Source of the DNA: Escherichia coli
GTDB taxonomy: Bacteria > Pseudomonadota > Gammaproteobacteria > Enterobacterales > Enterobacteriaceae
Reading direction: 5' to 3' (one strand)
DNA: 64,000 nucleotides
Assembly: GCF_030013205.1 (NCBI RefSeq)
Contig: NZ_CP122648.1
The first letter of the stretch is position 1; each line of letters starts with the position of its first letter. This document shows, one piece after another, positions 29,156 to 43,403 of the stretch. The translations under genes were made by a program, and so were the position numbers. The notes under the pieces were generated by a model that saw only the letters and a program-made list of their open reading frames with translations, did no database searches and was not told where the DNA came from.

Positions 29156-29169
29156 AACAAACATTTCTC

Positions 29170-29243
29170 AACGTCTACTAAAGTCCATCAAACCCACGAA
29201 TATCAAGCCTTCCAGCCATTTTCATAGTTTATTAACGTCTACT
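29170..29243 (+). repeat. two direct AACGTCTACT boxes in the att-proximal arm (third, inverted copy at 31665-31674)
   Basis: AACGTCTACT occurs at 29170-29179 and 29234-29243. Its reverse complement AGTAGACGTT occurs at 31665-31674, just upstream of alpA. Confidence 0.6.
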
Positions 29244-29270
29244 CACAACTACCAGAATCTACACACAGAA

Positions 29271-29307
29271 GTGTATAGTAATGCGTATAGGACAAAATTT
29301 ATTTTTT
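29271..29307 (+). repeat. arm-type repeat GTGTATAGTAATGCGTATAGGACAAAATTTATTTTTT (partner at 43307-43336)
   Basis: It is closely similar to GTGTATAGAAATGTGTATAGAATTTATTTT near the other island end, in the same orientation. In a circular form the two copies would flank the att core. Confidence 0.6.
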
Positions 29308-29319
29308 GGAGCTATACAC

Positions 29320-30534
29320 ATGCTGCTTTCAGACCTTGCCATCAGGCGCGCGAAGCCGAAAGAAAAGGCTTATACACTCAATGACGGTAACGGGCTTTCG
29401 TTGCTCATTGAGCCGAACGGTTCGAAAGGGTGGCGACTGCGCTACAGGTTTGCAGGAAAGCCCAAAATGTTGTCGTTGGGTGTGTACCCTGATGTGTCTC
29501 TGTCTGATGCCAGGGCGGCAAGGGATGAGGCTAAAAGGCTTCTTGCTGGTGGTATAAATCCAAGTGAGGCCAGAAAAGCCCAAAAGCGAGAACAGGCGAG
29601 CAAATTTGGCAATACTTTTGAGGGTATTGCTCGCGAATGGTACGAAAAGCGGATCGACAGGTGGTCATCGTCATACGCCGAGGAAATGATCGAGACGTTT
29701 GAAAAAGATGTTTTTCCGTACATTGGCGGTAGGCCGATCGCAGAAATTAAGCCGATGGAATTGCTGGCGGTTCTTTCCCGTCTTAATGACCGTGGTGCGA
29801 CTGAAAAATTGCGTAAGGTTCGCCAGCGATGCGGCGAGGTGTTCCGGTACGCAATCATCACCGGACGCGCCGAATATAATCCAGCCCCTGACCTGGTGAG
29901 CGCATTTGCTCCACATAAAAAAGAGCATTACGCCTATTTGAAGGCCGACGAACTGCCGGAATTTTTCCGCGTTTTTAATACGTACACCGGAAGCCAGATC
30001 GTCAAACTGGCAATGCGGCTATTAATTCTGACAGGTGTCAGACCCGGGGAATTACGGCAGGCAGAATGGCAGGAGATCGATTTTGATAATCGTTTGTGGG
30101 AAGTGCCTAAAGAACGAATGAAGATGCGCCGTCCGCATTGTGTGCCATTACCAGAACAGGCGATAAAAATACTGGAGCAGTTAAAAAACATGACAGGCCA
30201 GTATCAGTTTATTTTCCCCGGTCGTATTCGCCACAGTAAGCCAATGAGTGAAATGGCGATGAATGTGCTCATTCGTCGTATCGGCTATGCCGGGCGCGTT
30301 ACTGGTCATGGATTCCGGCACACCATGAGCACCATTTTGCATGAGCAGGGCTATAACACTGCGTGGATAGAAACGCAGCTCGCGCACGTCGATAAAAACT
30401 CAATTCGTGGCACGTACAACCATGCGCAATATCTGGACGGGCGGCGGGAAATGCTTCAGTGGTACGCTGATTATATGGATTCGCTCGAGCATGGCGGAAA
30501 TGTGGTGCATGGTGAGTTCGGAAAATGCGGGTGA
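29320..30534 (+). CDS. int: tyrosine integrase, P4-like
   Basis: ORF 29281..30534. The ATG at 29320 follows a GGAG. The N-terminus MLLSDLAIRRAKPKEKAYTLNDGNGL is typical of P4-type integrases. The catalytic region contains GVRPGELRQ, HGFRHT and RGTYNH. Confidence 0.9.
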   Translation: MLLSDLAIRRAKPKEKAYTLNDGNGLSLLIEPNGSKGWRLRYRFAGKPKMLSLGVYPDVSLSDARAARDEAKRLLAGGINPSEARKAQKREQASKFGNTFEGIAREWYEKRIDRWSSSYAEEMIETFEKDVFPYIGGRPIAEIKPMELLAVLSRLNDRGATEKLRKVRQRCGEVFRYAIITGRAEYNPAPDLVSAFAPHKKEHYAYLKADELPEFFRVFNTYTGSQIVKLAMRLLILTGVRPGELRQAEWQEIDFDNRLWEVPKERMKMRRPHCVPLPEQAIKILEQLKNMTGQYQFIFPGRIRHSKPMSEMAMNVLIRRIGYAGRVTGHGFRHTMSTILHEQGYNTAWIETQLAHVDKNSIRGTYNHAQYLDGRREMLQWYADYMDSLEHGGNVVHGEFGKCG

Positions 30535-30662
30535 CTGGTTGAGTATACAGTAGTAGACTTTGAGCGACGAAAGAAAAGGCTGTGTCTAGGGTCGCTCCCG
30601 AAAATCCGTACACCTCGACGGACTGGTACAGCCACTACAGTAGAGGACGCTGAGGTGTGCGT

Positions 30663-31460
30663 ATGATTGATATTCATGCCGAATTAAACGAATACAAAAA
30701 AGATTTTATTTCTTTACGTGAATTTCTTGAGGTCGTGCTTAAGGTCGCTGGTGATGATTATGATGTTTCAGATGTCATAACTTGGATACTCAGGAGAATA
30801 AGCGGAGAACATATCCGCCTGTACACAGTAAATGAATTTAAGCTGTTGGAATCTTTTTGTAACCCGTATCGGGATGAATTTGATAATGATGTTCTTTATA
30901 GAAATCTGAATGCGGTTCGGAAACGTGGTTGTTTACCTGGTGAGAGGGATGAAAATGGTTTTCTGGTGTCCGGTTATTGGGAAGATCCCGAATTTGAGAA
31001 CATTGGATTTATAAGGGGTGAAATTTTCGCAATTTTTCCCGATGTCCTTGACGCGTTAACGAAGCTGGAAGGCGCTAACTCTTCTGAAAATGACGAGGCA
31101 CAAGGACGCGATATTGAAAAGAAAGAGTTGCGTACAGAGGATGATTTATTATCCCAAATCGCAATGCTGGAAAAAGAAAACGCAGAGTTAAGGGCAAGGA
31201 TAGAGCAGTTAGAGCAAGAGCGCCCGATACACTTATATAAATACTGGGATAAAGACCCATTAGCTAAGGCTATTGAGATTAGAAACAGAGAGTGGGCCAA
31301 TTACGATCCAGAAAATGATTTTGCCACCAGGGGAAATCAAGAAGCGATAACCAGGGAGCTTAAGCAGTGGGGGGCAAGTAATGCACTTGCAACGCTCATA
31401 GAGAGGACTGCCTGCCCTATTAACCGAGACAACAGCCAAAAGAACGCAAAGCCGGATTAA
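30663..31460 (+). CDS. hypothetical protein (265 aa) with C-terminal coiled coil; cargo position between int and alpA
   Basis: ORF 30657..31460. The ATG at 30663 lies 7 nt after GAGG. I recognise no domain. There is a heptad-like segment, LLSQIAMLEKENAELRARIEQLEQE. Confidence 0.6.
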   Translation: MIDIHAELNEYKKDFISLREFLEVVLKVAGDDYDVSDVITWILRRISGEHIRLYTVNEFKLLESFCNPYRDEFDNDVLYRNLNAVRKRGCLPGERDENGFLVSGYWEDPEFENIGFIRGEIFAIFPDVLDALTKLEGANSSENDEAQGRDIEKKELRTEDDLLSQIAMLEKENAELRARIEQLEQERPIHLYKYWDKDPLAKAIEIRNREWANYDPENDFATRGNQEAITRELKQWGASNALATLIERTACPINRDNSQKNAKPD

Positions 31461-31475
31461 CGCACCATACCGCAT

Positions 31476-31618
31476 ACCCTGAGGGTGATTTACTGTTACC
31501 CTGAGGGTATTTTTTTATCTTCCCCGTCAATTTTACCATCACCCTTAGGGTAGATTTCCTCCCGATTACCATCACCCTTAGGGTAGATTTCCTTCCGGTA
31601 ACCATTAGGCCTGAGGGT
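31476..31618. promoter_or_regulatory. five phased 11-bp palindromes ACCCT(G/T)AGGGT (operator array) upstream of alpA
   Basis: Boxes lie at 31476-86, 31498-508, 31541-51, 31574-84 and 31608-18 (the last reads GGCCTGAGGGT). Centre spacings are 22, 43, 33 and 34 bp. Boxes 3 and 4 sit inside a 33-bp tandem duplication (31535-31567 / 31568-31600). Confidence 0.7.
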
Positions 31619-31687
31619 ATGAAAATATTCGTTATTTCTGTGCCATGATTACCTCGTCAAATTGAGTAGACGTTATGAGGTAAATAT

Positions 31688-31885
31688 ATGTCAAATACGC
31701 TTATTCGTTTAACAGAAGTTCAGCGTAGAACTGGATATAGCAAGGCATGGATTTATCGCCTTATGGGGCAAGGTAAATTTCCTGCATCAGTTAAAATTGG
31801 CTCGCGAGCTATTGCTTTCGTTGAGAGTGAAATTGACGAGTGGATTAATCAGCGTATTGCGGAATCACGCGGAACAGCTACCTGA
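31688..31885 (+). CDS. alpA: AlpA-family transcriptional regulator/excisionase-like HTH protein
   Basis: 65 aa. The sequence LIRLTEVQRRTGYSKAWIYRLMGQGKFPASVKIGSRAIAFVESEIDEWI is a classic AlpA/Xis MerR-like HTH. Confidence 0.85.
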   Translation: MSNTLIRLTEVQRRTGYSKAWIYRLMGQGKFPASVKIGSRAIAFVESEIDEWINQRIAESRGTAT

Positions 31886-31962
31886 TTAAATGGCTACGGG
31901 GCTATTGCCCCCAGCTATCCACCAGCAAATAAAAGTAACTTAATTCGATAGCAGGAGTTTTT

Positions 31963-32763
31963 ATGAAATTTCCAAAAACGCCCGTACAGGGGCGGGGCTT
32001 CGTTCGGCCTGAAAACCAGAATCTGCAAAATTTCGGCGAAATTATCCCGATTATTTCCGGCGTTATTGGCGGGAGTGAAACCACTATTGTTAGCGCCAGA
32101 GCGTTACATAAGGCGTTAGGTGTAGGGCGCGTTTTCCGTTCGTGGATCAAGGGGCGCATTGAAGAATATGGGTTCACGGAAGGCGTGGATTATAAGGTTG
32201 TTGAATATTTGAGCCGACCCGATCCGGTGAGCGCAAAATCTCGCCAGCAAACCGCTCTTGAGTACATCATCACAGTGAACATGGCGAAAGAACTGGCGAT
32301 GGTCGAACGTACCGAACAGGGCCGCGCCGTTCGCCAGTACTTTATCAAATGCGAGGAGGAGCTACACAAGGTTGCGCCTGTTCGTTCCGCAGCGTTACGC
32401 CGGGAACTGAAAGCCCGTATCACAGTTGCCAGCTACTTTAAGCCAATGTGTGCCGCGCTGGAGGCGTACCGGGCTGAACTGGGTAAAAACACACTCCAGC
32501 ACCACTACACCACGGAAGCGAACATGCTGGCGCGTATCGTGCTGGGTGGCATGACTGCAAAACAGTGGGCACTGGCGAACGGCATTACAGGCGAACCACG
32601 CGACCACATGAGCACGTTGCAGCTTGAGCACCTTTCTTACCTTGAGCAGAGCAATATCACGCTGATTGAGTTAGGCCAGGACTACCACCAGCGGAAGGCT
32701 GAATTAATTCGTCTTTCGCAGCGTTGGTTAGCCCGTCGCATGGAGGAAAACAGCCATGTGTAA
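31963..32763 (+). CDS. phage antirepressor-like protein (AntA/Bro-N type N-terminus, KilAC-like C-terminus)
   Basis: 266 aa. The segment VSARALHKALGVGRVFRSWIKGRIEEYGFTEGVDYKV matches the antirepressor N-terminal domain pattern. Confidence 0.65.
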   Translation: MKFPKTPVQGRGFVRPENQNLQNFGEIIPIISGVIGGSETTIVSARALHKALGVGRVFRSWIKGRIEEYGFTEGVDYKVVEYLSRPDPVSAKSRQQTALEYIITVNMAKELAMVERTEQGRAVRQYFIKCEEELHKVAPVRSAALRRELKARITVASYFKPMCAALEAYRAELGKNTLQHHYTTEANMLARIVLGGMTAKQWALANGITGEPRDHMSTLQLEHLSYLEQSNITLIELGQDYHQRKAELIRLSQRWLARRMEENSHV

Positions 32764-32778
32764 CGCTCTGACCGTTAC

Positions 32779-32809: not shown

Positions 32810-33069
32810 CTTTGTGAACGAATAGCCTACTGCGCCATATTGCTTACTGTCTACGAGGCAGATTATAGCGTTGTGGTCGCACAGAGTGAAGGCGCTGATC
32901 ACCGTTACTACAGCACACCAGAAATGCAGAATATTTTGCTGCAAAATGTCGTTGGCCACGCTGTCCGGAAAGCAAAAAATTTTGCTGGTGGCGTGACTGA
33001 TACGATTTTTTCTGGTTGCTCGGTGCTGATCAACTTAACCTGGACTTATGTACAACATTGCAACTATTC

Positions 33070-33216: not shown

Positions 33217-33237
33217 TCTTGATTTTACCCTTAATCG

Positions 33238-33411
33238 TCAACCTTTTGGCACGATGCCTCGCTGTTGTAATTCTTTGCGGAGCACTCGTTTAATCCAGGT
33301 AGCTAATGAGGTGTCGCCGTCTGCTTTGGCTGCCTCCTCAAGTTGTGCCCTAAATTCTTCTGGTAGCCGCATTTGGTATGGTGGCGATCGTTTTTCTAAT
33401 GGTGTTGACAT
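33238..33411 (-). CDS. ribbon-helix-helix (Arc/MetJ-like) DNA-binding protein, 57 aa
   Basis: Unlisted ORF MSTPLEKRSPPYQMRLPEEFRAQLEEAAKADGDTSLATWIKRVLRKELQQRGIVPKG. It shows a beta-strand then two-helix RHH pattern. GGTAATTACC palindromes overlap its start. Confidence 0.6.
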   Translation of the reverse strand: MSTPLEKRSPPYQMRLPEEFRAQLEEAAKADGDTSLATWIKRVLRKELQQRGIVPKG

Positions 33412-33451: not shown

Positions 33452-33547
33452 ATTGTACTTACCATTGCAAAAAAAACAACGCCCCGGACTGCGGGAACAG
33501 TACCAGGGCGTCTAACCACCAACGATAGCGAAAGTATCGAGGTAGCT

Positions 33548-33751
33548 ATGATAAATCATACCACACACCCGCAAGGGCGGGACTCGCACAACCTGAATAA
33601 ATACATCTGGCGTTTTATCGCCCTGAGCACGGCACAACCGCGCGTGATTCACATCGAGGCCACCAGCGAACAGGAAGCCCGCCAGCAATCTCCTGATGGC
33701 TGCGTGATGGTATTCGCTGCCCGTATTCGCCAGGAGGTACGCCATGATTAA
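33548..33751 (+). CDS. small protein, possibly Icd-like (P4-family cell-division-inhibitor-like)
   Basis: 67 aa (MINHTTHPQGRDSHNLNKYIWRFIALSTAQPRV..VFAARIRQEVRHD) with GAGG upstream. It is the only plausible part of the listed 331-aa ORF 32756..33751. The family call is from memory only. Confidence 0.4.
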   Translation: MINHTTHPQGRDSHNLNKYIWRFIALSTAQPRVIHIEATSEQEARQQSPDGCVMVFAARIRQEVRHD

Positions 33752-34109
33752 CCTGTCACTTACCGACCTTCACCGCATTCAGTTTGACGAGAAATTTACC
33801 GGGCAGCTACTGGTCCATGTGGAGAACGGGCGCATAGTGCGTAATTACCACCTGCCGGATGGTGCAATTGCCGGAAGCGTTGAAGCATTGCTGGAAATGG
33901 CAGAACGTGCGCGACTGATTAAGCCGTTAACGTGCCATCACGATGATGATCTGCATTTTACCGGACGCATGGTGAGCCATTATGAAAACGGCGTTGAGGT
34001 ATCCCGCGAACGTCTGCGTGATGATTGCTGTTTCGGCACATTGCCGGAATTTATCGAATTGCTGACCGATTGCGGTTATCAGGTAATTCAGAGCAAGACG
34101 CAGGAGTAA
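33744..34109 (+). CDS. hypothetical protein (121 aa)
   Basis: ATGA overlap with the preceding gene. No recognisable motif. Confidence 0.55.
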   Translation: MINLSLTDLHRIQFDEKFTGQLLVHVENGRIVRNYHLPDGAIAGSVEALLEMAERARLIKPLTCHHDDDLHFTGRMVSHYENGVEVSRERLRDDCCFGTLPEFIELLTDCGYQVIQSKTQE

Positions 34110-34115
34110 AAAACC

Positions 34116-34406
34116 ATGAAAAAGAAAAATTCTGGCTTTACTGCCAGCGGCCCCGCTCGGCCTGAAATCAAACACGGCGATATTTACCGCGACACCAGAC
34201 GTGGGGGACGAGTGGTTATTCGTCACGTTACGCCAGGCAATATCACCTACCGCCGTGAGGCTTACGAATATGACTGCGTAATGCCGCGCCGTCAGTTTGA
34301 GCGTGATTTTATTCTGGTGGAAAACAAACAACAGGCGGTGGCGAGACGTGCAGCCACGAATATTAAAAAAATCCGGGCAATGTTGGTTGCGGGAGGTAAG
34401 AAGTGA
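34116..34406 (+). CDS. hypothetical small basic protein (96 aa)
   Basis: Its stop overlaps the primase start. It occupies a position typical of small accessory genes upstream of P4-type primases. Confidence 0.55.
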   Translation: MKKKNSGFTASGPARPEIKHGDIYRDTRRGGRVVIRHVTPGNITYRREAYEYDCVMPRRQFERDFILVENKQQAVARRAATNIKKIRAMLVAGGKK

Positions 34407-36208
34407 AAAACGCCCCGAATTTAAAATATCAGCCGAAGGATAAATTCACTGAGGTAATCATTTTTGCCGGGACGGATGCTTACGCCCATGCTCAACACTG
34501 GATTGAAAGCGAAGGACGAAAACACGGCGATAACGTACCACCTGTTTACCTGGGGCCGAAGCAACTGGCAGACCTGGCGAACATCCGCATTATCGACGAA
34601 GGGCGCCGCTTTGCGCGTGTCTATATCGCAGGGGAGATCGAACCAATTCAGATCAACGCTATCGCCGAAAAGCTGGCACTGGCTGGCGTACAGGAGGCGA
34701 AATTATACAAAGGCATCACCGACCGGGAGCCGGAGAACTGGCGCGATTACCTGCAACGGATCCGCGAACAGGCAGAGCGCGGGGAAGTTTCAGCGATGAA
34801 ATTAGTCACAAAAAATAGTGACCTACCCAGGCCAGCACTAAATCAGATGGGAGCCAGCCAGAGAGGGGAAGTATTGCTTGAATATTATGGAAGGGCACTG
34901 GCTATAAATGACGATTCTGATGTAGTTCACCATTACAACGGAATTGTCTGGGAGCCTGTATCTGATAAGGAACTCCAGCGGTCTATGGCGAAGATTTTTA
35001 TTGATGCTGGAATCAGTTATTCGCAAAACGCCATTAAATTTGCCGTAGACACAATGAAATTGAGCCTGCCTGTTATGGGCGGGGCAGACAGGAATCTTAT
35101 TGGATTCAGTAACGGGGTATTTGATACCCGGACAGGAAATTTTCGGGAGCATAACAAAAATGACTGGTTGTTAAATGCCAGTGAATTACCGTTCAGCCCA
35201 CCAGCAGAGGGGGAAACGCTGGCAACACATGCGCCGAATTTCTGGAAGTGGCTGCGTCGTTCGGTGGCAAATAACGATCGTAAAGCGGATCGCGTACTGG
35301 CGGCATTATTCATGGTACTGGCGAACCGGTACGACTGGCAGTTATTCCTTGAGGTAACGGGGCCGGGCGGAAGCGGTAAAAGTGTGATGGCGGAGATTTG
35401 TACCATGCTGGCGGGTAAGGCCAATACAGTATCGGCGAGCATGAAGGCGCTGGAAGACGCGAGGGAACGAGCGTTAGTGGTGGGATATTCTCTGATTATC
35501 ATGCCTGACATGACCCGCTACGCAGGTGATGGTGCTGGGATTAAGGCCATTACAGGCGGTGACAAGGTGGCAATCGACCCGAAACATAAAGCCCCCTACT
35601 CCACACGTATTCCGGCGGTAGTGCTGGCAGTAAACAATAACGCCATGTCATTCAGTGATCGCAGTGGAGGGATCTCGCGTCGTAGGGTGATATTTAATTT
35701 CTCTGAGGTCGTACCGGAGAACGAACGCGATCCCATGCTGGTGGAAAAAATAGAAGGCGAACTGGCGGTAGTGATTCGCCATTTGCTTACACGATTTGCC
35801 GACCAGGACGAAGCGAAAAGACTACTTTATGAGCAGCAAAAATCAGAAGAAGCACTGTTAATAAAGCGTGAAGGTGATTCGCTGGTGGACTTCTGCGGTT
35901 ATCTGATGTCGTTGGTTAAATGTGAGGGGATGATAGTAGGTAATGCAGAAATAGTGCCATTTAGCCCGAGGCGATATCTGTATCATGCTTATTTGGCTTA
36001 TATGTCTGCGCATGGTCTGGGAAAACCGGTATCACTGACACGCTTTGGTACAGATATGCCAGGGGCAATGGCTGAGTACGGAAAGGAGTACAAGCGGGCT
36101 AAATGCACTAAAGGTCCAGATAAAGGGCGAACGATCACAAATGTTCTGTTAGATAAAGATGCTGATGGATGGTTACCAGCAGCGGCAGGCATTAACGACA
36201 GAACATGA
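34403..36208 (+). CDS. P4-alpha/D5-type primase-helicase (replication initiator)
   Basis: 601 aa. It has Walker A VTGPGGSGKS and Walker B-like LIIMPD. The overall layout matches the phage/plasmid primase P4-family C-terminal domain. Confidence 0.8.
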   Translation: MKNAPNLKYQPKDKFTEVIIFAGTDAYAHAQHWIESEGRKHGDNVPPVYLGPKQLADLANIRIIDEGRRFARVYIAGEIEPIQINAIAEKLALAGVQEAKLYKGITDREPENWRDYLQRIREQAERGEVSAMKLVTKNSDLPRPALNQMGASQRGEVLLEYYGRALAINDDSDVVHHYNGIVWEPVSDKELQRSMAKIFIDAGISYSQNAIKFAVDTMKLSLPVMGGADRNLIGFSNGVFDTRTGNFREHNKNDWLLNASELPFSPPAEGETLATHAPNFWKWLRRSVANNDRKADRVLAALFMVLANRYDWQLFLEVTGPGGSGKSVMAEICTMLAGKANTVSASMKALEDARERALVVGYSLIIMPDMTRYAGDGAGIKAITGGDKVAIDPKHKAPYSTRIPAVVLAVNNNAMSFSDRSGGISRRRVIFNFSEVVPENERDPMLVEKIEGELAVVIRHLLTRFADQDEAKRLLYEQQKSEEALLIKREGDSLVDFCGYLMSLVKCEGMIVGNAEIVPFSPRRYLYHAYLAYMSAHGLGKPVSLTRFGTDMPGAMAEYGKEYKRAKCTKGPDKGRTITNVLLDKDADGWLPAAAGINDRT

Positions 36209-37407: not shown

Positions 37408-37602
37408 CGGAGGCCGGGATTTTTCCCGGCTTTTTTGTGCCAGTAAAAAGCCCGCAGCCAGAAGTGTTGCGGGCTTTGTTTTTCAGGTGATTGAAGTCAA
37501 TGGGAAGAACGCGATCATCATGCGTTATTGTTTCATAAATTGCAATGATGTAGATCGTCATTTCAGTTTGTGCAATCATAATCGTTGTTTTGTTCAGGAG
37601 AT

Positions 37603-37782
37603 ATGACTATGAGAAAAGCCAGCGTGAAACCTGTTTTACTCGCTCGTGATCAGATTGAAGCATTACAGCGCATCCAGGACGAGGAACGCCGCAATTCTCC
37701 GCTGGGGATTGCTCCGAGCATTCATGAGGTCGCCCGGCGTTTAATGCAGCGGGCGCTTTATCCCGTAGAACGTCCGGCCTGA
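37603..37782 (+). CDS. small hypothetical protein (about 57-59 aa; start 37603 or 37609)
   Basis: ORF 37585..37782. GGAG precedes the ATGs. The product MTMRKASVKPVLLARDQIEALQRIQDEERRN.. is possibly RHH-like. Confidence 0.45.
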   Translation: MTMRKASVKPVLLARDQIEALQRIQDEERRNSPLGIAPSIHEVARRLMQRALYPVERPA

Positions 37783-37821
37783 TGGTCGTGATTTTTTGGT
37801 GAAAAAAGAGAGGTGGTAAAA

Positions 37822-38400
37822 ATGCCAGCAAGCAAAGAAGATTTGCGATTAAAACTGATGGAGGTGGTTAACGCTCTGTCAGAGTCGCAGGGCAGCACTC
37901 CGCAGGAGATTATCGAAATTCTGAATGCGATCCCCGCACAGGATTTCATAAAAGAGGATAACGCTAATCAAAACATCGTCGCGTCAGTCGAAGATGAATC
38001 CTCACTGGCAGAAGCCCAGGCCAAAGCGGATTCCGCATACAGCAATATGGGCCGTCGAGCTCCGGCCCCGTTTGCTGGTGAAAAGTCGATGGATTACCGC
38101 AAGCGTGCATTAATTGGCGCACAGAAGCTGGCTAAAAAATTCAGTGATGTGGATATTCGTTCCGTTTCAGATTCTGCAACGCTGGCGGTGCTGGAAGATC
38201 AGATTTACAAGGCTGCTCAGGAAAGTGCTCAGTGGGCCGTGGAAAACACGCCGGGTTATTTGACTAAAAAAGTCAGGATGGATGAAGCCGGGCGCCGGAT
38301 TACTGAATATCAGGGGGATCCGAATAACTGGCTTAGTGCTTTCAAAATCCCTCCCCGTCGCCTGGTCAAAATTAACGTTGCAAGCCTCGCGGGGGCATGA
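37822..38400 (+). CDS. hypothetical protein (192 aa), first gene of the morphogenesis-like block
   Basis: ORF 37813..38400. The ATG at 37822 follows GAGGTGG. The protein is helical and acidic, with no motif recognised. Confidence 0.55.
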   Translation: MPASKEDLRLKLMEVVNALSESQGSTPQEIIEILNAIPAQDFIKEDNANQNIVASVEDESSLAEAQAKADSAYSNMGRRAPAPFAGEKSMDYRKRALIGAQKLAKKFSDVDIRSVSDSATLAVLEDQIYKAAQESAQWAVENTPGYLTKKVRMDEAGRRITEYQGDPNNWLSAFKIPPRRLVKINVASLAGA

Positions 38401-38464
38401 AAAACGTGCTGATTTCAGCCCTGCCGGATTTGGCGGGGCTTATTGATTATAACCGGGTGACATT

Positions 38465-39148
38465 ATGCTTTTAACAGAAATTGAGGCGGCAAAGCAGATT
38501 CGGGACGGTCAGCTACCGTCGCCTTATCAGTTCTCCAACATGTGGCTGGTTAACCTGCGTATTACAGGGACTGGCATGGCCTACCGCGCCGAAGAAAAAG
38601 AATTTGTCTGGCGTTCACCGCAAACTTATCTCAATCCGCAGTTCCTGGAACGTTGCGCCGGAGTACCCGTCATTATCGACCATCCCGAAGGCAAAACCAT
38701 TGAAGACGTTGGCGAACGGTCGCGCATTATTGGCACCGTCATGTTGCCGTATATTCGCGGTGACGAGGTGTGGGGTGTATGCCGGATTTACGGGCAGGAA
38801 ATCATCGATTACATCCAGAAAGCACGGGGGGAGGTATCCACCAGCCCGTCGGTTGTGTTTTGTGGTGCGTCCGGTGGGGCAGAAGTTCCTGATGTAATGG
38901 GCGAGGACAATTTTTTCATTGAGGGTACGCCATTTCTTATCGATCACGTTGCGCTCGTACCGTTGGGCGTATGGGATAAGGGCGGGAAACCATCAGGTGT
39001 GGAAGTAACAACGCCGACAGAAGAAGAACAGCTCGCCGGAATGGTCCGTGAAGTTATTGATGCGGCCTGCAAGCCAGCTCTGGAAAAACTGGAAGAAATA
39101 TCCGGGCGGCTGGATCAACTGGAAAAAAACAGAGTGAGTGAATCATGA
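38465..39148 (+). CDS. hypothetical phage-structural-module protein (227 aa), in the slot usually held by a major tail protein
   Basis: It lies directly upstream of the chaperone-like and tape-measure-like genes, and its stop overlaps the next start. The function is inferred from position only. Confidence 0.4.
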   Translation: MLLTEIEAAKQIRDGQLPSPYQFSNMWLVNLRITGTGMAYRAEEKEFVWRSPQTYLNPQFLERCAGVPVIIDHPEGKTIEDVGERSRIIGTVMLPYIRGDEVWGVCRIYGQEIIDYIQKARGEVSTSPSVVFCGASGGAEVPDVMGEDNFFIEGTPFLIDHVALVPLGVWDKGGKPSGVEVTTPTEEEQLAGMVREVIDAACKPALEKLEEISGRLDQLEKNRVSES

Positions 39149-39762
39149 AAATTGCTAAAAACTTAAATCTGATTATCCCTGTGCGCACTGAAAAGGGTAA
39201 TGGCTGGCTCCATGCCACGCCGATCAGCAAAGAGGTGTTTAAAGAGCATTTCTTCATCCTGAGTAAAACCTTTTCTGCCATTTTTTCTGAAGGTCTTGGT
39301 GTTGTTGCGGGTCCGCGCGTTGCCTGCCTTATGCTGGAGAAAATCTCCCGTGACTCCGGTTTATGGGATGGGGAGAAAGGCATACGTAATACGCTCATAA
39401 ACGAAATTATTCGCCTGGCAAACCTTGTTTATCCAGTGGAGGGCAAAGGCTACGACACAATCCCTCTCGATATGGCGCTGGAGCGTGAAATCGTTGATTT
39501 GGACGAAGTGGCGGGTGAACTTGTTTTTTTTACATGCGTCTCGTCGATAAATTCCCCGGAGCAGACGAAGGGGACTATGGATGCGGTGAATGGAATATGG
39601 AGCACTCAATGCTCGTCCTTGAGTCTTACGGAATGGATCGATTCATTGCCGACATTGAAGCCTGCCGTCAGTTCTGGCGCGACGGCGAACACGTCATCAG
39701 CGACATCCTCGACTACTCAGCCGGAGCCGGATTCAGAGACATCTGTGCAGATTCCGGTCTGA
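39145..39762 (+). CDS. tail-assembly-chaperone-like protein (G-like, 0 frame)
   Basis: 205-aa ORF immediately upstream of the tape-measure-like gene. It contains the slip site T TTT TTT at codons 127-129. The 0-frame tail after the slip site is S/T-rich and low-complexity. Confidence 0.5.
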   Translation: MKIAKNLNLIIPVRTEKGNGWLHATPISKEVFKEHFFILSKTFSAIFSEGLGVVAGPRVACLMLEKISRDSGLWDGEKGIRNTLINEIIRLANLVYPVEGKGYDTIPLDMALEREIVDLDEVAGELVFFTCVSSINSPEQTKGTMDAVNGIWSTQCSSLSLTEWIDSLPTLKPAVSSGATANTSSATSSTTQPEPDSETSVQIPV

Positions 39763-39827
39763 ATGTAAAAACAGCAGCTCAGTTTCGTGAGCTGCTCAAA
39801 TTCAAAAATCCCGCAGGAGTATTGTAA
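39525..39827 (+). other. putative -1 programmed frameshift site (39525-39531) plus T-like extension frame
   Basis: The T8 run at 39524-39531 gives the heptamer T TTT TTT in the 0 frame. The -1 frame is open from there to 39827 (..YMRLVDKFPGADEGDYGCGEW..FKNPAGVL). It ends in TAATG, overlapping the ATG of the tape-measure-like gene. Confidence 0.55.
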
Positions 39828-41866
39828 TGTCAGGTAATCAGATGCCAGTTCTGACGCTGGACGTTAATGAAGAACACCTCAAACGGCTTGAGGCAATTTT
39901 TGAAAAGTATCGCAACGGGCTGATGATCGGCCCTGCCGGAACGCCGATGAAAATACCGGGGCAAAGTGGGCGCAGCGTGGGGGCAGGCTTACCCGTGGCG
40001 GCAAAATCTGGTCGGACAGGACCGGATGTATCCGGGAGAGTGAGGGACGAAAAAGGGCGCTTTGTCGGCAGCGGAAAAACAGCAGATTCGTTCGTAAGCA
40101 ACTATAAAGGTCGCGGCGAAACGATGTTTGATAAGTATCTCAGCGGGCTGGGGAAAAATGCCCAACAGACGCTGAAAACTTACAAGCAGATCAATTCTAC
40201 ACTACAGACGACCACTTCAAGATTAAACAACCTGTTTAAAACAACCGTATCGTGGGGAACAAAACTCTCGGTTATGGGCGTTGCCGGACCGTTTGGCTTT
40301 GGCATGATGTCCCGTAGTGTTGTAGAGAAACAGAAAAATGCAGATGAGCTGGTGGCAACGCCAGGAGAGTTAAAGGCGGCAGAAAGCACTTATTCGCCTT
40401 ATTTTTCCGGTGTTGGCAATGTGCTCAATACACTGGCAGCAGCACAAAATGATATATCGCATCCTGCCCGCGTCGGCCTGCTTAATCTGGGGCTAAATCC
40501 TGATAAAAACGCGACTGAAAACCTGCCTGTATTCCTGAAAAAGGTTGCAGAGCTGGCAAAGGAATATCAGGGAAGTGGTCTTACCCAGAGCATGCTCAGG
40601 GGAAGAGGGCTTGGATGGGTAAATTTTGGTCTTACTAACCAGTTAGTCAAATATCAGGACAAAATACCTGAACTCAACAAAGAGTTTTCGTTACGTGCAG
40701 CGCAGAATGATTCGTTACTGACCTCTGCACATACAAGTAAATATCAGAATATTACCAGTAACCTGGAAAAAAACTGGGATCGGCTTACCAGCGGATTTCA
40801 GGGAGCAATGGCGGGGAATGAAGACGCTTTAATCAGAATGTCTGATGGTGCCACGAATGCTGCCCTGAATTTCATGAATGGTGAGAACTTTAAAAGGATT
40901 CTGACGGATGTAGAAACGGGGCTGGATAAACTTGGTAAGTACGTAAATGGCCCGGATTTTAATAACGACCTGAACAATTTTGCCGAAAACGTTGCAAAGG
41001 TTGTTAAGGCACTTAGCGGGTTTGTTGGTTTTGCGGTTGAACATCCCTGGCTTTTTGGGGCCGCAGTACTTGCTGGACCATCGAGAGTTGGTGCTGTGGC
41101 AGCCACAACGACCGGAGTTGCCGCCCGTGTTGTTGGTGGAAGTCTTCTTGGGGCTACAGCCGGAACAGTAGCTGGATTGGCTATTCCTACAAATGACACA
41201 CCTACCACCAGTGAGGAAATGAAAGGGCTGGAGGGGCGTTTCAACTTTGATTATTTTAACGAAGTGCAGGAGTGGCAAAAAAACAATCCGGGTAAGGTCT
41301 GGCCTGGAGGATTGCAGGGATTTTCAAATCAAGTAAACAGATCTGCATATTTATCCAGAGGGATCAGGAATAACAATCCCGGAAATCTTAATTTCGCAGG
41401 ACAAAAAGGGGCTACCCTGGAATCGGGGCCAAATGCCCGTTTTGCCAGCTTCCCGACGATGCTGGAAGGCATTGCCGCCTTAGATCGGCAGGTAATGCTA
41501 TACCTGAAACGCGGCAAAAATACGATTGATCAGATTATTGATATTTATGCCCCTTCATCTGATGGAAATAACACATCGTCCTATAAAAGCTATCTCTCTC
41601 AGTACACCGGATTAGGTGTTAAGGAGAAAATCGATGGTTCTAATTTTGAGGTCATGAAAAAGCTAATTCAGGGCATTATTAACCATGAAAATGGTGCTGC
41701 CGCTAAAGCTGTAAGTGTTGAAGATGTGATCCGGGCGCTGGCTATGAATCGTGGGATTGTCCCTGCAGCAGGAAACAATGATCAGAACGTTAAGTTGGAA
41801 ATTGTTCGGAACGCTGGTGCCGATTACTTCGCGCAACTAATTGGTGCTCAACGGTTCCTGGGATGA
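39827..41866 (+). CDS. tape-measure-like protein (679 aa)
   Basis: It has a long helical N-terminal part, then a Gly/Ala-rich hydrophobic segment (FGAAVLAGPSRVGAVAATTTGVAARVVGGSLLGATAGTVAGLAIP). The C-terminal globular domain carries RNNNPGNLNF. The gene follows the chaperone-like gene. Confidence 0.55.
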   Translation: MSGNQMPVLTLDVNEEHLKRLEAIFEKYRNGLMIGPAGTPMKIPGQSGRSVGAGLPVAAKSGRTGPDVSGRVRDEKGRFVGSGKTADSFVSNYKGRGETMFDKYLSGLGKNAQQTLKTYKQINSTLQTTTSRLNNLFKTTVSWGTKLSVMGVAGPFGFGMMSRSVVEKQKNADELVATPGELKAAESTYSPYFSGVGNVLNTLAAAQNDISHPARVGLLNLGLNPDKNATENLPVFLKKVAELAKEYQGSGLTQSMLRGRGLGWVNFGLTNQLVKYQDKIPELNKEFSLRAAQNDSLLTSAHTSKYQNITSNLEKNWDRLTSGFQGAMAGNEDALIRMSDGATNAALNFMNGENFKRILTDVETGLDKLGKYVNGPDFNNDLNNFAENVAKVVKALSGFVGFAVEHPWLFGAAVLAGPSRVGAVAATTTGVAARVVGGSLLGATAGTVAGLAIPTNDTPTTSEEMKGLEGRFNFDYFNEVQEWQKNNPGKVWPGGLQGFSNQVNRSAYLSRGIRNNNPGNLNFAGQKGATLESGPNARFASFPTMLEGIAALDRQVMLYLKRGKNTIDQIIDIYAPSSDGNNTSSYKSYLSQYTGLGVKEKIDGSNFEVMKKLIQGIINHENGAAAKAVSVEDVIRALAMNRGIVPAAGNNDQNVKLEIVRNAGADYFAQLIGAQRFLG

Positions 41867-41917
41867 TTTAAATACACGCGCTTTCCGGCGCATTAATACA
41901 GTCTGAGGGGAAGTGTC

Positions 41918-42445
41918 ATGTTTATGAGCAAGGCAGAATATGCCAAACACAAAGGCGTAAGCCGCCAGACAGTTTACGACTGGATCGAGAAAGGCGAAGT
42001 GATCATGTCTGGCAAAAAAATTGATGTGGAAGCGACAGAGCAGCGGAACAGCCCACCAGCACAGGGAAAAGATACCGTTTCTGAAATGTGGCCAGAGAGA
42101 ACGCTGGAAATGACGTGGGGCGAGTTCTGGAAAGCAGTTAAGGCCAGAGACGGTAAAATCCCTGCACCAGTAACGGACAATGACATACAGCAGCGTGTAC
42201 AGGATGCAGCCGGGGAACTATGCTGTGAAGTGCAATTTCTTGATGATGGTGCTATCTGCCTTGAGGATTATGCTGGGCAATATTACTTTGAGCAGTATGA
42301 TTTTCGGGAAAATGCCAGGCTGGCAATTCGTATGCTGCGTTGTGAGCTCTGCTATGTTGCAGGTGATTGTCCCGATGAGCTGGATAACTGGAGTGAAGCC
42401 GGACTAAACGCCCTGGCTGAGTGGGAAAAATCAGGCCATCAATGA
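41918..42445 (+). CDS. Nu1/TerS-like winged-HTH protein (175 aa)
   Basis: The N-terminus MSKAEYAKHKGVSRQTVYDWIEKGEV resembles lambda Nu1-type small terminase HTH domains. A repeat field lies immediately downstream. Confidence 0.5.
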   Translation: MFMSKAEYAKHKGVSRQTVYDWIEKGEVIMSGKKIDVEATEQRNSPPAQGKDTVSEMWPERTLEMTWGEFWKAVKARDGKIPAPVTDNDIQQRVQDAAGELCCEVQFLDDGAICLEDYAGQYYFEQYDFRENARLAIRMLRCELCYVAGDCPDELDNWSEAGLNALAEWEKSGHQ

Positions 42446-42450
42446 CCTCA

Positions 42451-42732
42451 AAAAGTGTCAAGTTGAGCAGCTTGCCAGGTTGACACTTTACACTCTGAAC
42501 GCGAAAAAGTGTCAACCTCGCTGTAAGCCCCGCCATTACTGGCCTTTCGCCAGATTTACCACGTCAAAAAGCCGAAAAAATCGCGAAAAGTGTCAAGTTG
42601 CCATGCTTAGAAATGCTAAGGTTTGATAAGGTTTTTCGCGAAAAAGTGTCAAGTGTGTCAACCTGCGATGTTAAGATTTGTTAAGGTCTTAAGCCGGAAA
42701 GTGTCAACCAGCCCCCTAAGATTTCCTAAGGT
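42451..42732. repeat. repeat field: at least 6 copies of AAAGTGTCAA(C/G) interleaved with TAAG..TAAGGT repeats (candidate cosB/pac-like or second origin)
   Basis: AAAGTGTCAA copies lie at 42451-62, 42479-91 (inverted), 42503-17, 42585-600, 42641-62 (double) and 42686-700. Three carry the extended form CGCGAAAAAGTGTCAA. The second family reads CTTAGAAATGCTAAGGTTTGATAAGGT, GTTAAGATTTGTTAAGGT and CCTAAGATTTCCTAAGGT. Confidence 0.75.
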
Positions 42733-42739
42733 GTAAACC

Positions 42740-42919
42740 ATGACCATCACCGAAGCCGATTTGCTGGAGATGATCCGCAGCATTGCCGGAATCAAACAAC
42801 CAGCAAGCAAAATTAACAGGTGTTCAGCGCCTGTTTCCGTTGTGCTGCAGCAGGAACGCCACCAGCATGATGATGTGAGGCCGTATCAGTGGCGGAAACC
42901 GGACAGGCCGCGACGGTGA
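42740..42919 (+). CDS. possible small ORF (59 aa)
   Basis: Unlisted ORF MTITEADLLEMIRSIAGIKQPASKINRC.. It starts just after the repeat field. No motif and only a weak RBS, so it may be a gene remnant. Confidence 0.25.
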   Translation: MTITEADLLEMIRSIAGIKQPASKINRCSAPVSVVLQQERHQHDDVRPYQWRKPDRPRR

Positions 42920-43211
42920 GCGGAACGTTCGGTAAGGCTACAGCCAAGCCAAACATTAAGCCTACGGGTAACCCTTCGAAGGGGCTTTAAAGGGGAGATG
43001 ATTATCCTTACCAGTTGATAAACAAGCAAACCTCAAATTTGAGGTTTGTATCTGCCTGACTTATTTTTGTGCTAAGTTGTTGATATATCCGACGACACAA
43101 ATTTGCGTTCTGTGGCTGGTGGTGGCGAGTTACGACCGATCATTTCCTTCCTGGCAGGTTACATCCTGCTGCTCAACTACTACGGTAGCCACTACGATTA
43201 ACTACGCGATG

Positions 43212-43240
43212 CCGATATGGGGATTCCCATATCGGTTTAT
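43212..43240 (+). terminator. intrinsic terminator
   Basis: Perfect 10-bp stem CCGATATGGG/CCCATATCGG with loop GATT, followed by TTTAT. Confidence 0.6.
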
Positions 43241-43306
43241 CCGTGATCATCCACCAGCTTGATCACGGTTAACAGGGGATGTGTAATCCCCAAGCGAGTG
43301 ATAAAT

Positions 43307-43336
43307 GTGTATAGAAATGTGTATAGAATTTATTTT
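43307..43336 (+). repeat. arm-type repeat GTGTATAGAAATGTGTATAGAATTTATTTT (partner of 29271-29307)
   Basis: See the partner feature. It lies 50 bp left of the second att core. Confidence 0.6.
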
Positions 43337-43385
43337 AGAACTCGCGAATGCGCCTTTATTACTGGCCTTGTGGCTTGTTGTATTG

Positions 43386-43403
43386 TTCCCTTCGCCCGCT
43401 CCA
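43386..43403 (+). repeat. att core copy 2: TTCCCTTCGCCCGCTCCA (18-bp direct repeat of the glyU 3' end)
   Basis: Exact match to 29138-29155. Confidence 0.9.

Follow-up and report, generated by a model that had tools for sequence, protein, structure and literature searches.

A PICI-type satellite island of a pig Escherichia coli strain that probably remodels its helper phage in head and tail

Background

A satellite island of 14,248 bp (repeat unit) integrated at tRNA-Gly(CCC) in the pig E. coli strain ETEC4079 raises the question of what an element that leaves the making of capsids to a helper phage does with a block of morphogenesis genes, and which phage that helper might be. The late genes suggest that the island modifies the virus carrying it in the head as well as in the tail. 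The overall picture is probably that of a PICI-type satellite that remodels the virion of a Rac-SA53/pPE4-type helper.

Island boundaries and backbone

The integration target, tRNA-Gly(CCC) (29082–29155, plus strand; ARAGORN and Rfam), lies in the 64-kb window, that is, the whole stretch of DNA analysed. The 3'-terminal 18 nt of this gene, TTCCCTTCGCCCGCTCCA, form attL (29138–29155), and a perfect 18-bp match in direct orientation, attR (43386–43403, plus strand; direct repeat D18), closes the island. Profile searches bear out the gene order claimed in the first-pass annotation: integrase, cargo, AlpA, antirepressor, ribbon-helix-helix (RHH) protein, Icd, small ORFs and primase. The tyrosine integrase of the P4/CP4-57 type (29281–30534, plus strand; Pfam Arm-DNA-bind_3, Phage_int_M and Phage_integrase, and NCBIfam), for which RefSeq places the start at 29320, is followed by an int-alpA RNA motif (Rfam RF02996; 30579–30646, plus strand; 45.5 bits, gathering score 35.8, E = 8e-7) and, in the int-alpA hotspot, by a 267-aa cargo protein (30657–31460, plus strand). 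In PICIs, this hotspot is the place of accessory or defence genes (PMC11364771). The cargo protein matches nothing in Pfam, NCBIfam or PADLOC, and its two PHROG matches are marginal (E about 2e-3), both to families of unknown function.

The AlpA-family regulator/excisionase (31688–31885, plus strand; Pfam Phage_AlpA, E = 2e-19) precedes an AntA/AntB-type antirepressor (31963–32763, plus strand; Pfam), to which a tblastn search aligns the antirepressors of helper-type phages with 40–43% identity across 91–128 aa. The divergent 57-aa RHH ORF (33238–33411, minus strand) is weakly similar to YlcI/YnfO (NCBIfam YlcI_YnfO_N, E = 5e-4); it is absent from the RefSeq annotation, and the sister islands have an annotated YlcI/YnfO gene in the equivalent position. 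An Icd-like protein (33548–33751, plus strand; RefSeq annotation; phrog_6196, E = 1e-52) and two small ORFs that are kept in sister islands, coding for a 121-aa and a 96-aa DUF4222 protein (33744–34406, plus strand), lie upstream of the gene for a primase-helicase (34403–36208, plus strand; D5_N, DUF5906 and Pox_D5 in Pfam) with a P4-family primase C-terminal domain (TIGR01613, E = 2e-27). Immediately 3' of the primase gene is a candidate replication origin (36237–36575, both strands) with 12 iterons GTAGACAGTT (up to 2 mismatches each), most of them in pairs with 8–11 bp between partners. The window contains five exact copies of GTAGACAGTT, and all of them sit within 36237–36574, as do the 12 copies with up to 2 mismatches, a clustering far from chance that confirms the iteron origin proposed at first pass. 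Genes for a ProQ/FinO-family protein (36581–37123) and a PerC-family regulator (37120–37407; both plus strand, Pfam) complete this part of the island; a terminator scan places a strong terminator at 37447–37477, 3' of the PerC gene.

The arrangement int-alpA-antA-icd-primase-iteron ori-ProQ-PerC, together with identity to EcCIMP1 in Int (66%), AlpA (81%) and AntA (58%), supports the Gram-negative PICI backbone suggested earlier. None of the island ORFs matches a capsid, portal, terminase or lysis family in the searches made, in agreement with the initial claim that capsid, portal, large terminase and lysis genes are missing, and the island has no sheath, tube or baseplate genes. Helper dependence is supported as well, given that the helper must provide the capsid, the terminase, lysis and the greater part of the tail.

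The late block

The remaining genes form a terminator-bounded late block (37609–42919). At first pass it was a five-gene morphogenesis-like block; morphogenesis stands, but the genes are not anonymous, being diverged copies of helper protease/scaffold, tail chaperone and tape measure genes. The notion of an island free of structural genes does not hold: a prohead protease, a scaffold-like protein, a tail assembly chaperone and a tape measure protein are present. These four proteins show 54–88% amino-acid identity to those of pPE4, Rac-SA53 and the ETEC4090 prophage, and nothing comparable was found elsewhere in the phage collection searched. This homology to one prophage lineage names the probable helper: the island is likely a satellite of the Rac-SA53/vB_Apl-pPE4-type lambdoid myophage lineage. 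Phages of this type encode a full terS-terL-portal-MuF-protease/scaffold-capsid-sheath-tube-chaperone-tape measure-baseplate module, with a terminase of the T4-like Terminase_6N type.

The block begins with a 57-aa gene (37609–37782, plus strand) that is conserved in all related satellites and is 52% identical to an EcCIMP1 ORF, and ends with a conserved 59-aa ORF (42740–42919, plus strand). The second gene encodes the scaffold-like protein of 195 aa (37813–38400, plus strand; tblastn; phrog_6216 positions 409–544), in which residues 61–189 share 64% identity with the C-terminal domain of pPE4 gp46, the helper protease-scaffold fusion, and the N-terminal 60 aa are new; dN/dS of this gene is 0.2. 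The stand-alone DUF2213 protein (38465–39148, plus strand), which has a long C-terminal helix, aligns at 54% identity with the N-terminal domain of helper gp46, so that the single fusion gene of the helper corresponds to two island genes in reversed order. The best Foldseek matches of its AlphaFold2 model (pLDDT 76.7) are herpesvirus assemblins and T4 gp21, at weak support (E = 4e-3 to 2e-2, TM 0.36–0.46), and H73, S125/S127 and H161 are invariant. As modelled, the DUF2213 protein is an assemblin-fold prohead protease.

The tail assembly chaperone (39145–39827, plus strand) is predicted as a 205-aa product (39145–39762) and a 227-aa fusion ending at 39827 that arises by –1 frameshifting at the slippery site T_TTT_TTT (39525–39531). 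It is 85–88% identical to helper gp55; the heptamer is present in all seven loci compared (three islands, three prophages and Rac-SA53), and the two product lengths are identical in six of them, the three islands and three prophages. The adjacent gene encodes a tape measure protein of 679 aa (39827–41866, plus strand). Its body (residues 1–495) has 85–90% identity with the tape measure proteins of helpers, a non-SLT muralytic domain spans residues about 500–643, and the protein ends in 36 aa that hold an island-specific form of a conserved C-terminal motif, KPGSDI.AQLAG.QQIPG, which is kept in E. coli helper alleles even with unrelated muralytic domains. Between island and phage copies of the late genes, dN/dS is 0.10–0.33 (0.41–0.69 in the frame of the frameshift extension, which overlaps the chaperone gene), and a comparison of two island lineages that differ in integrase and primase gives 0.12–0.17. 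By these substitution ratios, the four late genes are selectively maintained under purifying selection.

Related satellites and co-occurrence with the helper

Satellites of Enterobacter kobei and Pantoea stewartii carry genes for a tape measure protein, a baseplate hub (46–51% identity to helper gp59), a scaffold-like protein, a protease and the HTH protein described below, and P. stewartii also harbours a helper-type prophage. A Citrobacter satellite has the tape measure, scaffold-like and protease genes; homologues of the hub and the HTH protein were not detected in it. The late block is found on different integrase/primase backbones and at different sites (glyU; abgR-smrA), and all ORFs are intact in three sequenced lineages. 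That the block can decay is indicated by the ETEC4090 sister island, in which a 1,285-bp deletion has created a fusion of the protease and tape measure genes. E. coli also has a short late block that lacks the chaperone and tape measure genes, and in the island of strain 83972 the scaffold and protease genes are missing as well, the HTH protein and repeats being retained; these short forms imply that the tail genes are dispensable for the backbone.

Few genomes, 13 of 5426, have the full block at a coverage of at least 80%. The helper module is present in 83 of 5426 complete E. coli genomes (1.5%) versus six of the nine with an intact block (Fisher p = 9e-10, in a test that disregards shared ancestry among pig ETEC isolates). 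Helper-type prophages are absent from ETEC4079, the strain of the window itself, and from STEC346 and ETEC1749.

The HTH protein and the repeat field

Between the tape measure gene and the last ORF lies a gene for a 175-aa protein (41918–42445, plus strand) with an N-terminal winged HTH of the Xis/BldC/MerR type followed by an alpha/beta domain. The label "Nu1-like" is appropriate only for the 45-residue HTH, which gives weak matches to PHROG small terminases; the alpha/beta domain has no match to a known fold, and the best 50 fold matches listed for the protein include no Rpp or small-terminase structure. Comparison with the solved packaging protein RppC gives no match, and no lambda-type cosN was found within 2 mismatches across the whole island, which upholds the view that the accessory half is unlike the published rpp and capsid-homologue modules. 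The adjoining repeat field (42450–42735) comprises six AAAGTGTCAA sites (five direct and one inverted) and TAAGRTTT repeats. The window has nine AGTGTCAA sites, of which six fall within 42454–42707, and the array is kept with identical spacing in three other islands; the repeats are absent from helper phages. A packaging role of the HTH protein is possible but doubtful; the link is drawn only from its position and the weak PHROG matches.

Proposed life cycle and alternatives

In the proposed scheme, the lytic cycle of the helper would activate the island, which would be excised via Int/AlpA and replicate at its own origin. The satellite scaffold, having kept the capsid-binding C-terminal domain of the helper fusion, would take the place of that fusion in procapsids and redirect the helper capsid protein into a smaller shell fitting 14.2 kb (the helper genome is 47–52 kb); chances that small capsids are formed appear even. 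With the fusion displaced, the helper protease would be left out too, which would be why the satellite supplies a separate one. The satellite chaperone would load the satellite tape measure into tails otherwise built by the helper, and such chimeric tails are slightly favoured. The HTH protein bound to the six adjoining repeats would mark island DNA, most likely for packaging; this is the least supported step.

An unlikely alternative is that the chaperone and tape measure serve mainly in interference or defence: made from the amplified island, a tape measure with an altered C-terminal tail would be a competitor of the helper tape measure and spoil helper tail assembly, to the benefit of the host population and not of satellite transmission. 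The departure of the last 36 aa from the helper motif is compatible with this, the late block persists in helper-free strains, and blocking of tail assembly is known in PICIs and prophages (Tai, PMC11364771; Rta, PMC12987554). However, the satellite itself requires tails, the retention of a cognate chaperone with an intact frameshift points to productive assembly, and the tape measure of Vibrio PLEs ends up in infectious particles (PMC12987554); interference is, moreover, compatible with transmission, and the two are not mutually exclusive. Rather improbable is a classical cos-type EcCICFT073-like PICI, packaged by a lambda/phi80-like helper via an Rpp-like protein, with the structural copies as functionless passengers, as is reported of the capsid and decoration homologues c1499/c1500. 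Backbone and gene order are indeed shared, the HTH protein occupies the rpp position next to an array that might act as cosB, head-gene homologues of EcCICFT073 have no phenotype (PMC6092414), and the 83972 island has the HTH protein and repeats without structural genes. Yet the failure to find cosN or an RppC or Rpp-like counterpart within the searches described above, the purifying selection on the structural genes and the co-occurrence of the block with a specific non-lambda module that has a Terminase_6N-type terminase all argue otherwise.

The deletion derivative in ETEC4090, the scarcity of the full block and the lack of a helper in ETEC4079 would also suit a decaying, no longer mobile remnant, either a piece of a defective prophage or a satellite into which illegitimate recombination brought helper DNA. 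This is improbable in view of the perfect att repeats, the intact ORFs in three lineages, dN/dS far below 1, the presence of the block on different backbones at glyU and abgR-smrA, and homologous arrangements in three further genera. A P4-like satellite of P2-type helpers, which the P4-type integrase, AlpA, the Icd-like protein and the P4-family primase domain might suggest, is highly improbable: homologues of Sid, Psu, Delta and Epsilon are absent in all libraries searched, and the structural homologues come from a lambdoid myophage lineage, not P2. A PICI-type satellite that remodels the head and tail of its myophage helper remains the preferred reading.

Comparison with known systems

EcCICFT073-type PICIs share with the island the order int-alpA-(antA, icd)-primase-iteron ori-perC with rightward transcription (PMC6092414, PMC6739421), a size of 10–15 kb, a tRNA or other specific att site and helper dependence. 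EcCICFT073 is set apart by its description, with lambda/phi80 cos sites, RppA, capsid and decoration homologues and full-size heads, whereas the island combines the absence of cosN and of an Rpp match with protease, scaffold, chaperone and tape measure homologues from a different phage lineage. ProQ, PerC, Icd and AntA belong to the usual cargo of PICIs (PMC13612085, PMC6092414). The closest characterised relative of the backbone is EcCIMP1 (PerC 46%, besides the values given above), a PICI mobilised experimentally by the P22-like phage Kapi1 (PMC11773190); at 46–81% identity in Int, AlpA, AntA, PerC and the 57-aa ORF, it is not a close match. Like the island, EcCIMP1 has no recognisable terminase or capsid genes, and 3' of its primase gene are helper-like genes, annotated in RefSeq as a DNA ejection protein and a lytic transglycosylase, proteins that, like a tape measure, enter the recipient cell with the DNA. 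It differs in its podovirus helper, other structural homologues, a size of about 20 kb and late genes dissimilar to those of the island.

Redirection of capsid size by a scaffold-type protein in SaPIs (CpmB scaffold; Ccm; Rcm) and by P4 Sid is the proposed parallel for the 195-aa protein, although these proteins are unrelated to it in sequence and small capsids of the island are a prediction. A separate prohead protease was not found described in the literature for any satellite without its own capsid. The cf-PICIs and mycobacterial EPIPs likewise have several virion genes, with a tape measure gene predicted in some cf-PICIs and reported in EPIPs (PMC12987554 Extended Data Fig. 10; PMC12822802), but the island, unlike them, lacks capsid, portal, connector and large terminase genes.

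Satellite tape measure and chaperone genes have been shown experimentally in Vibrio PLEs only (PMC12987554). The Vibrio cholerae elements PLE1/4/11 direct the assembly of chimeric tails (Mathur, Boyd et al., Nature 2026, PMC12987554); virions incorporate the tape measure, chaperone and hub proteins that these elements encode, and transduction requires them. This precedent and the ordinary cargo make the novelty of the island smaller than first supposed. Both the island and the PLEs have their own tape measure and tail assembly chaperone, and some PLEs also have a baseplate hub, a gene shared with the Pantoea and Enterobacter sister satellites. In PLEs, the sheath, tube, most of the baseplate and fibres come from the helper and the capsid is also remodelled; for the island, the same would follow from its gene content. 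Rta is a feature of the PLE side, with no homologue known for the island. The PLE backbone is unrelated, not an int-alpA-primase PICI, and PLEs use the virulent phage ICP1 as helper. Their tail proteins share just ~20% identity with those of the helper, against 85–88% for the island chaperone and 85–90% for the tape measure body, an identity that indicates recent or ongoing exchange between the island and its helper lineage.

Boundaries and backbone of the island

The island (29156-43403 in the window) is bounded by a tRNA-Gly(CCC) gene at 29082-29155, the last 18 nt of which are repeated exactly at 43386-43403; this repeat of the tRNA 3' end delimits an element of 14,248 bp. Searches against Pfam, PHROGs and NCBIfam bear out the gene order read in the first-pass annotation, namely an integrase, an unknown 267-aa protein, AlpA, an AntA-type antirepressor, an Icd-like protein, two small ORFs, a primase-helicase of the D5/P4 family, ProQ/FinO and PerC. 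The divergent RHH gene of the same annotation is a real 57-aa ORF on the minus strand (33238-33411) that is absent from the RefSeq annotation; apart from it, the main ORFs are all on the plus strand. The iteron origin is equally clear: all five exact copies of GTAGACAGTT found in the 64 kb, together with 12 copies at up to 2 mismatches, lie inside 338 bp directly 3' of the primase gene. Capsid, portal, terminase and lysis families are not detected in the island, as had been claimed.

When set against the definitions of Gram-negative PICIs (Fillol-Salom 2018) and of the SatelliteFinder model (de Sousa 2023), the backbone is that of an ordinary Gram-negative PICI, so that the resemblance originally suggested stands. 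The element falls within 10-15 kb, has a specific att site and direct repeats, and carries the integrase as the first gene at its left end; AlpA (E = 2e-19) is encoded 3' of int, with unidirectional rightward transcription, and the island has its own primase/replicase with the iteron origin immediately 3'. ProQ, PerC, Icd and AntA are usual PICI cargo (PMC6092414, PMC13612085). The island is real and intact.

A PADLOC search yields no match for the 267-aa cargo protein or the small ORFs and only marginal matches on AntA and the HTH protein of the late block; lacking such a match, a defence role for the 267-aa protein or the other small ORFs was dropped. The int-alpA RNA motif of Rfam (RF02996) scores above the gathering threshold at 30579-30646 (+), between int and the 267-aa cargo gene. 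Another non-coding element, of 64 nt, is about 81% identical between the island (32922-32987, between antA and the RHH/icd genes) and the helper-type phages described below, in which it lies 5' of the terminase genes (20274-20335 in the phage vB_Apl-pPE4, record L003; 10941-11004 in the prophage of strain ETEC4090, record L006). It contains two copies of GCA.AA.ATTTTGCTG and is kept in the sister islands, including that of strain 83972. Satellite and helper regulation may be coupled through this element, as a common operator or RNA.

Directly 3' is a second island (about 45100-58100, positions 973112-986040 of the genome record), which encodes a major capsid protein and a phage baseplate protein, a recombinase and an integrase on the minus strand, and contains an IS3 element. 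A near-perfect lambda-type cosN, GTGCGGCGACCT, with 1 mismatch, is located at 51145-51156, and next comes a type III secretion cluster. On the 5' side, xdhA (25544-27835, minus strand) is annotated as a pseudogene with an internal stop in ETEC4079, the Belgian pig isolate to which the window is 100% identical.

A late block homologous to a myophage structural module

The first-pass annotation described five genes of the late block (37609-42919) as morphogenesis-like. Four of them can now be named as homologues of gp46, gp55 and gp56 of a particular phage lineage. Among 50,697 phage records searched with tblastn, only Escherichia phage Rac-SA53 and vB_Apl-pPE4, both lambdoid myophages, strongly match the 679-aa protein as well as the DUF2213 protein. 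The structural module of these phages and of related E. coli prophages, hereinafter the helper type, encodes, in order, the small terminase, a T4-type large terminase, the portal, a MuF-like protein, a 440-aa protease-scaffold fusion (gp46 in pPE4), the major capsid protein, sheath, tube, a 205-aa protein, a 693-aa protein with an SLT domain, and the baseplate. Residues 61-189 of the 195-aa protein of the island are 64% identical to the C-terminal domain of gp46, and the 227-aa DUF2213 protein is 54% identical to its N-terminal domain; thus, one protease-scaffold gene of the helper corresponds to two island genes in reversed order. The 205-aa protein is 85-88% identical to gp55, the overlapping 97-aa frame is 79-85% identical to an unannotated -1 frame of gp55, and residues 1-501 of the 679-aa protein are 88% identical to gp56.

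The dN/dS values between the island and phage copies are 0.10-0.33, and 0.41-0.69 for the frameshift-extension frame, which overlaps the chaperone gene; between this island and that of strain STEC005, the chaperone and tape measure genes give 0.12-0.17. The backbone of the STEC005 island is a different one, with an integrase of 26% identity, Rha in place of AntA, a DUF927 primase and an insertion site between abgR and smrA. Taken together, low dN/dS and the distinct backbone indicate that the block is a maintained cassette that moves between backbones. The idea that the STEC005 island lies inside its own helper was rejected, given that its abgR-smrA site is separated by about 6 kb from the Rac-type prophage at ttcA. 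Judging by homology and by analogy with the Vibrio PLEs and with SaPIs, the late module would serve to remodel head and tail alike with components derived from the helper.

The island of ETEC4090 (L041) is 99.3-100% identical to that of the window over the late region compared, with a 1,285-bp in-frame deletion corresponding to 38985-40269. The deletion removes the chaperone gene and fuses the protease (to about residue 174) with the tape measure protein (from about residue 149).

Tail assembly chaperone and tape measure protein

The 205-aa gene contains the heptamer T_TTT_TTT (39525-39531) in register for a -1 slip, giving products of 205 aa and 227 aa. Three islands and four prophages have the identical heptamer; the lengths of the two products also agree among these islands and three of the prophages. 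A -1 frameshift gene located just 5' of the tape measure gene is said to have been recognized by Xu and co-workers in 2004 as the classic signature of a tail assembly chaperone.

In the tape measure protein, overall identity to the helper alleles is 85-90% for residues 1-495 and reaches 90-100% in most 40-residue windows. An exception is a hypervariable stretch at residues 41-80 (39947-40066), with 38-60% identity between flanks of 90-100%, both between islands and in comparison with helpers. The PLE11 defence protein Rta targets a short, comparable stretch in the tape measure protein of the Vibrio phage ICP1 (PMC12987554). Residues ~500-643 form a muralytic domain other than the Pfam SLT domain of pPE4. 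This domain type is present outside islands in about 34 genomes, in a prophage context wherever checked (e.g., C7 and cq9); it is a circulating helper allele rather than an invention of the satellite. The notion that the muralytic allele of an island always differs from that of the co-resident helper does not hold, because the prophages of UMNF18 and STEC005 share the domain type of the island. The C-terminus is distinct: E. coli helper alleles end in ...KPGSDI(L/V)AQLAG.QQIPG irrespective of the muralytic domain, whereas the last 36 residues of the island protein differ and end in ...NAGADYFAQLIGAQRFLG, identically in two lineages.

The helper-type prophage of ETEC4090 carries, among its tail genes, an accessory gene (moron) for an LprI-family "lysozyme inhibitor" (L006, 32244-33314), which could matter for the exclusion of incoming particles with a muralytic tape measure protein.

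Protease and scaffold

In a Foldseek search with the AlphaFold2 model of the DUF2213 protein (pLDDT 76.7), herpesvirus assemblins and gp21, the prohead protease of T4, rank at the top; the E-values are weak, but the matches are very consistent. Residues H73, S125/S127 and H161 are invariant among 27 homologues, a pattern that fits a predicted His-Ser-His protease.

The scaffold-like protein (37813-38400) is named "NUDIX hydrolase" in RefSeq, with no NUDIX domain detectable in it. The name seems to have spread from more distant DUF2213 proteins, which are fusions with a true NUDIX domain (PF00293).

The HTH protein and the repeat field

The 175-aa protein, previously called Nu1-like, does contain a winged HTH, of the Xis/BldC type, in its first 45 residues only; for the alpha/beta remainder Foldseek gives no match, and the model is a confident one (pLDDT 88.6). 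Matches to small-terminase PHROGs are weak and confined to the HTH, and the BLASTP similarity to the helper small terminase (30% over 56 aa) is generic HTH similarity only. An assignment as an Rpp protein was considered and discarded, given that a phmmer search against all PDB chains, RppC included, finds no match and that the Foldseek matches, of which the top 50 are listed, are to Xis/BldC-type HTHs only. Six AAAGTGTCAA sites keep their position in every island that has the 175-aa gene and are absent from three helper genomes. This absence, with no other non-coding similarity there, argues against the repeat field being the pac site of the helper; a cos site of the lambda/phi80 kind was likewise dropped, as the island contains no lambda/phi80 cosN within 2 mismatches.

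Proteins of the Xis/BldC-type HTH class bind arrays of direct repeats. Hence the 175-aa protein is predicted, and likely, to bind the AAAGTGTCAA array, with packaging, regulation or recombination as candidate purposes. A seventh AAAGTGTCAA copy occurs at 33170, in the long intergenic region 5' of the RHH/icd genes; it is present also in the STEC005 island (L009, 19179) and missing from the ETEC1748 and 83972 islands. Its location hints that the HTH protein also acts at the early region.

The probable helper lineage

Of 5426 complete E. coli genomes, 83 have the helper-type structural module at a coverage of 80% or more. Ten genomes contain a tape measure gene with the island-type 3' end, one of them, ETEC4090, having the deletion derivative. 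In the other nine the block is taken as intact, by sequence in ETEC4079, ETEC1748 and STEC005 and from coverage and annotation elsewhere. Six of these nine have a helper-type prophage (ETEC1748 only in part), the exceptions being ETEC4079, STEC346 and ETEC1749. The co-occurrence is strong (Fisher p = 9e-10, a value that ignores shared ancestry), and the strains come from three continents and from hosts that include pig, goat and crow. The helper lineage can be identified with good confidence as the Rac-SA53/pPE4 type. Homology to this one lineage and co-occurrence with it are indirect evidence for the predicted induction, packaging and high-frequency transfer by a helper.

In the ETEC4079 genome itself (NZ_CP122643.1), the helper baseplate region finds as its best match the muralytic domain of the island, and the region at 2.09-2.14 Mb, considered as a resident helper, is an unrelated truncated lambdoid remnant. 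The island in the window is therefore without a resident helper of the Rac-SA53/pPE4 type. Three places in this genome match the muralytic domain and late block of the island, and the genome has no helper-type baseplate region; ETEC4079 probably carries further related satellites or fragments elsewhere.

The 5.8-kb segment of pPE4 that was compared, from capsid to tail chaperone, is 100% identical to a prophage of E. coli cq9. The phage pPE4 (PP818812.1), deposited as an Actinobacillus phage, carries the Rac-type E. coli genes recET, kil and ydaT, and its stated host looks doubtful.

Related loci in other enterobacteria

A contig scan with the 195-aa protein as the lone query gives no match, and one with the protease alignment does. 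Stand-alone proteases of about 225 aa, with 55-97% identity, are encoded in Citrobacter, Salmonella, Enterobacter, Pantoea and Klebsiella. In E. kobei and P. stewartii, the locus 3' of the replication gene encodes a tape measure protein (632-673 aa) that falls in the PHROG of the island protein and a baseplate hub (333-339 aa) with 46-51% identity to helper gp59, as well as the 57-aa ORF, a scaffold-like gene, a short protease and an HTH protein. Citrobacter sp. NCU1 has the tape measure, 57-aa, scaffold-like and protease genes, with no homologue of the hub or HTH protein detected in the locus. P. stewartii ATCC 8199 also has a helper-type prophage, and the helper-type module is widespread in Enterobacterales, Burkholderiaceae and alphaproteobacteria. 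Within E. coli there is a short late block that lacks the chaperone and tape measure genes (matches of 46% coverage); the island of strain 83972 retains, of the late block, the first (57-aa) and last ORFs, the HTH protein and the repeats alone.

Only tentatively, and as a single joint reading that we rate as somewhat unlikely, it can be proposed that these enterobacterial PICI-type satellites would belong to a family so far overlooked, the members of which routinely substitute versions of their own for those virion parts that pass into the recipient together with the DNA. These parts would be the tape measure protein together with a chaperone or baseplate hub against myophage helpers, and ejection proteins against a P22-like helper, as in EcCIMP1; a split protease and scaffold pair would be brought for capsid remodelling. 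Such a strategy would be convergent with that of the Vibrio PLEs and selected at the entry or tail-assembly step, e.g., by escape from superinfection exclusion that the helper encodes or from defences directed at the tape measure protein. Satellite finders would miss a family of this kind because tail genes are treated as disqualifying.

Implications

Until 2025-26, to our knowledge, satellites were thought to use helper tails unchanged, and we know of chimeric tails demonstrated only for the Vibrio PLEs. The island adds an example from E. coli in which the helper can be named and is temperate and inducible, with satellite and helper proteins close enough (85-90%) for mapping the residues that matter, and with natural variants that have or lack the tail genes or have a hub in place of the chaperone. 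The tail genes are paired with a separated protease and scaffold, an arrangement that we have not found described for capsid remodelling; nor did the literature yield a description of this enterobacterial family. Tools that forbid tail genes likely exclude or downgrade these satellites. The helper lineage includes Rac-SA53, a prophage bearing LT-II enterotoxin genes, and the satellites occur mainly in ETEC from pigs and STEC from ruminants, so that the pair may affect the spread of toxin phages.

Comparison with known satellites

The island shares with P4-like elements int, alpA and a P4-family primase domain; of the remaining P4 core, Sid, Psu, Delta and Epsilon have no family match. The major capsid protein, portal, head-tail connector/adaptor and large terminase that define cf-PICIs are likewise not found in Pfam or PHROGs, the prohead protease and scaffold-like protein being the only such components present. 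With respect to the packaging and morphogenesis core of PICIs (terS, rpp, ppi, cpm), there is no Rpp match, and the small-terminase PHROG matches are the weak ones on the HTH. The island probably would score as "Type C" (int, alpA, pri), as does EcCIMP1 (PMC11773190), its closest characterized relative, which carries homologues of the P22-type ejection proteins of its own helper. EcCICFT073 was set beside the island by published descriptions.

The departure from the PICI definition lies in the tail genes. Satellite tail genes have been regarded as absent, and the SatelliteFinder model treats them as "forbidden", with 80 tail profiles (PMC10085698); the island, judged by homology, has a chaperone and a tape measure protein, and no holin. 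This pair is homologous to the helper pair located 3' of sheath and tube. The Vibrio PLEs assemble chimeric tails for which they themselves supply the tape measure protein, chaperone and hub; according to the 2026 study, a tape measure protein had been reported from no other satellite, with tmp predicted in PLE-like elements and some cf-PICIs (PMC12987554), and a 2025 preprint describes tape measure proteins in mycobacterial satellites (PMC12822802). Like the PLEs, the island encodes a tape measure protein and its cognate chaperone with a -1 frameshift. Because the backbone is of the PICI type and the tail genes come from an enterobacterial myophage, the resemblance to the PLEs, which were compared by description, looks functional and convergent rather than one of shared ancestry.
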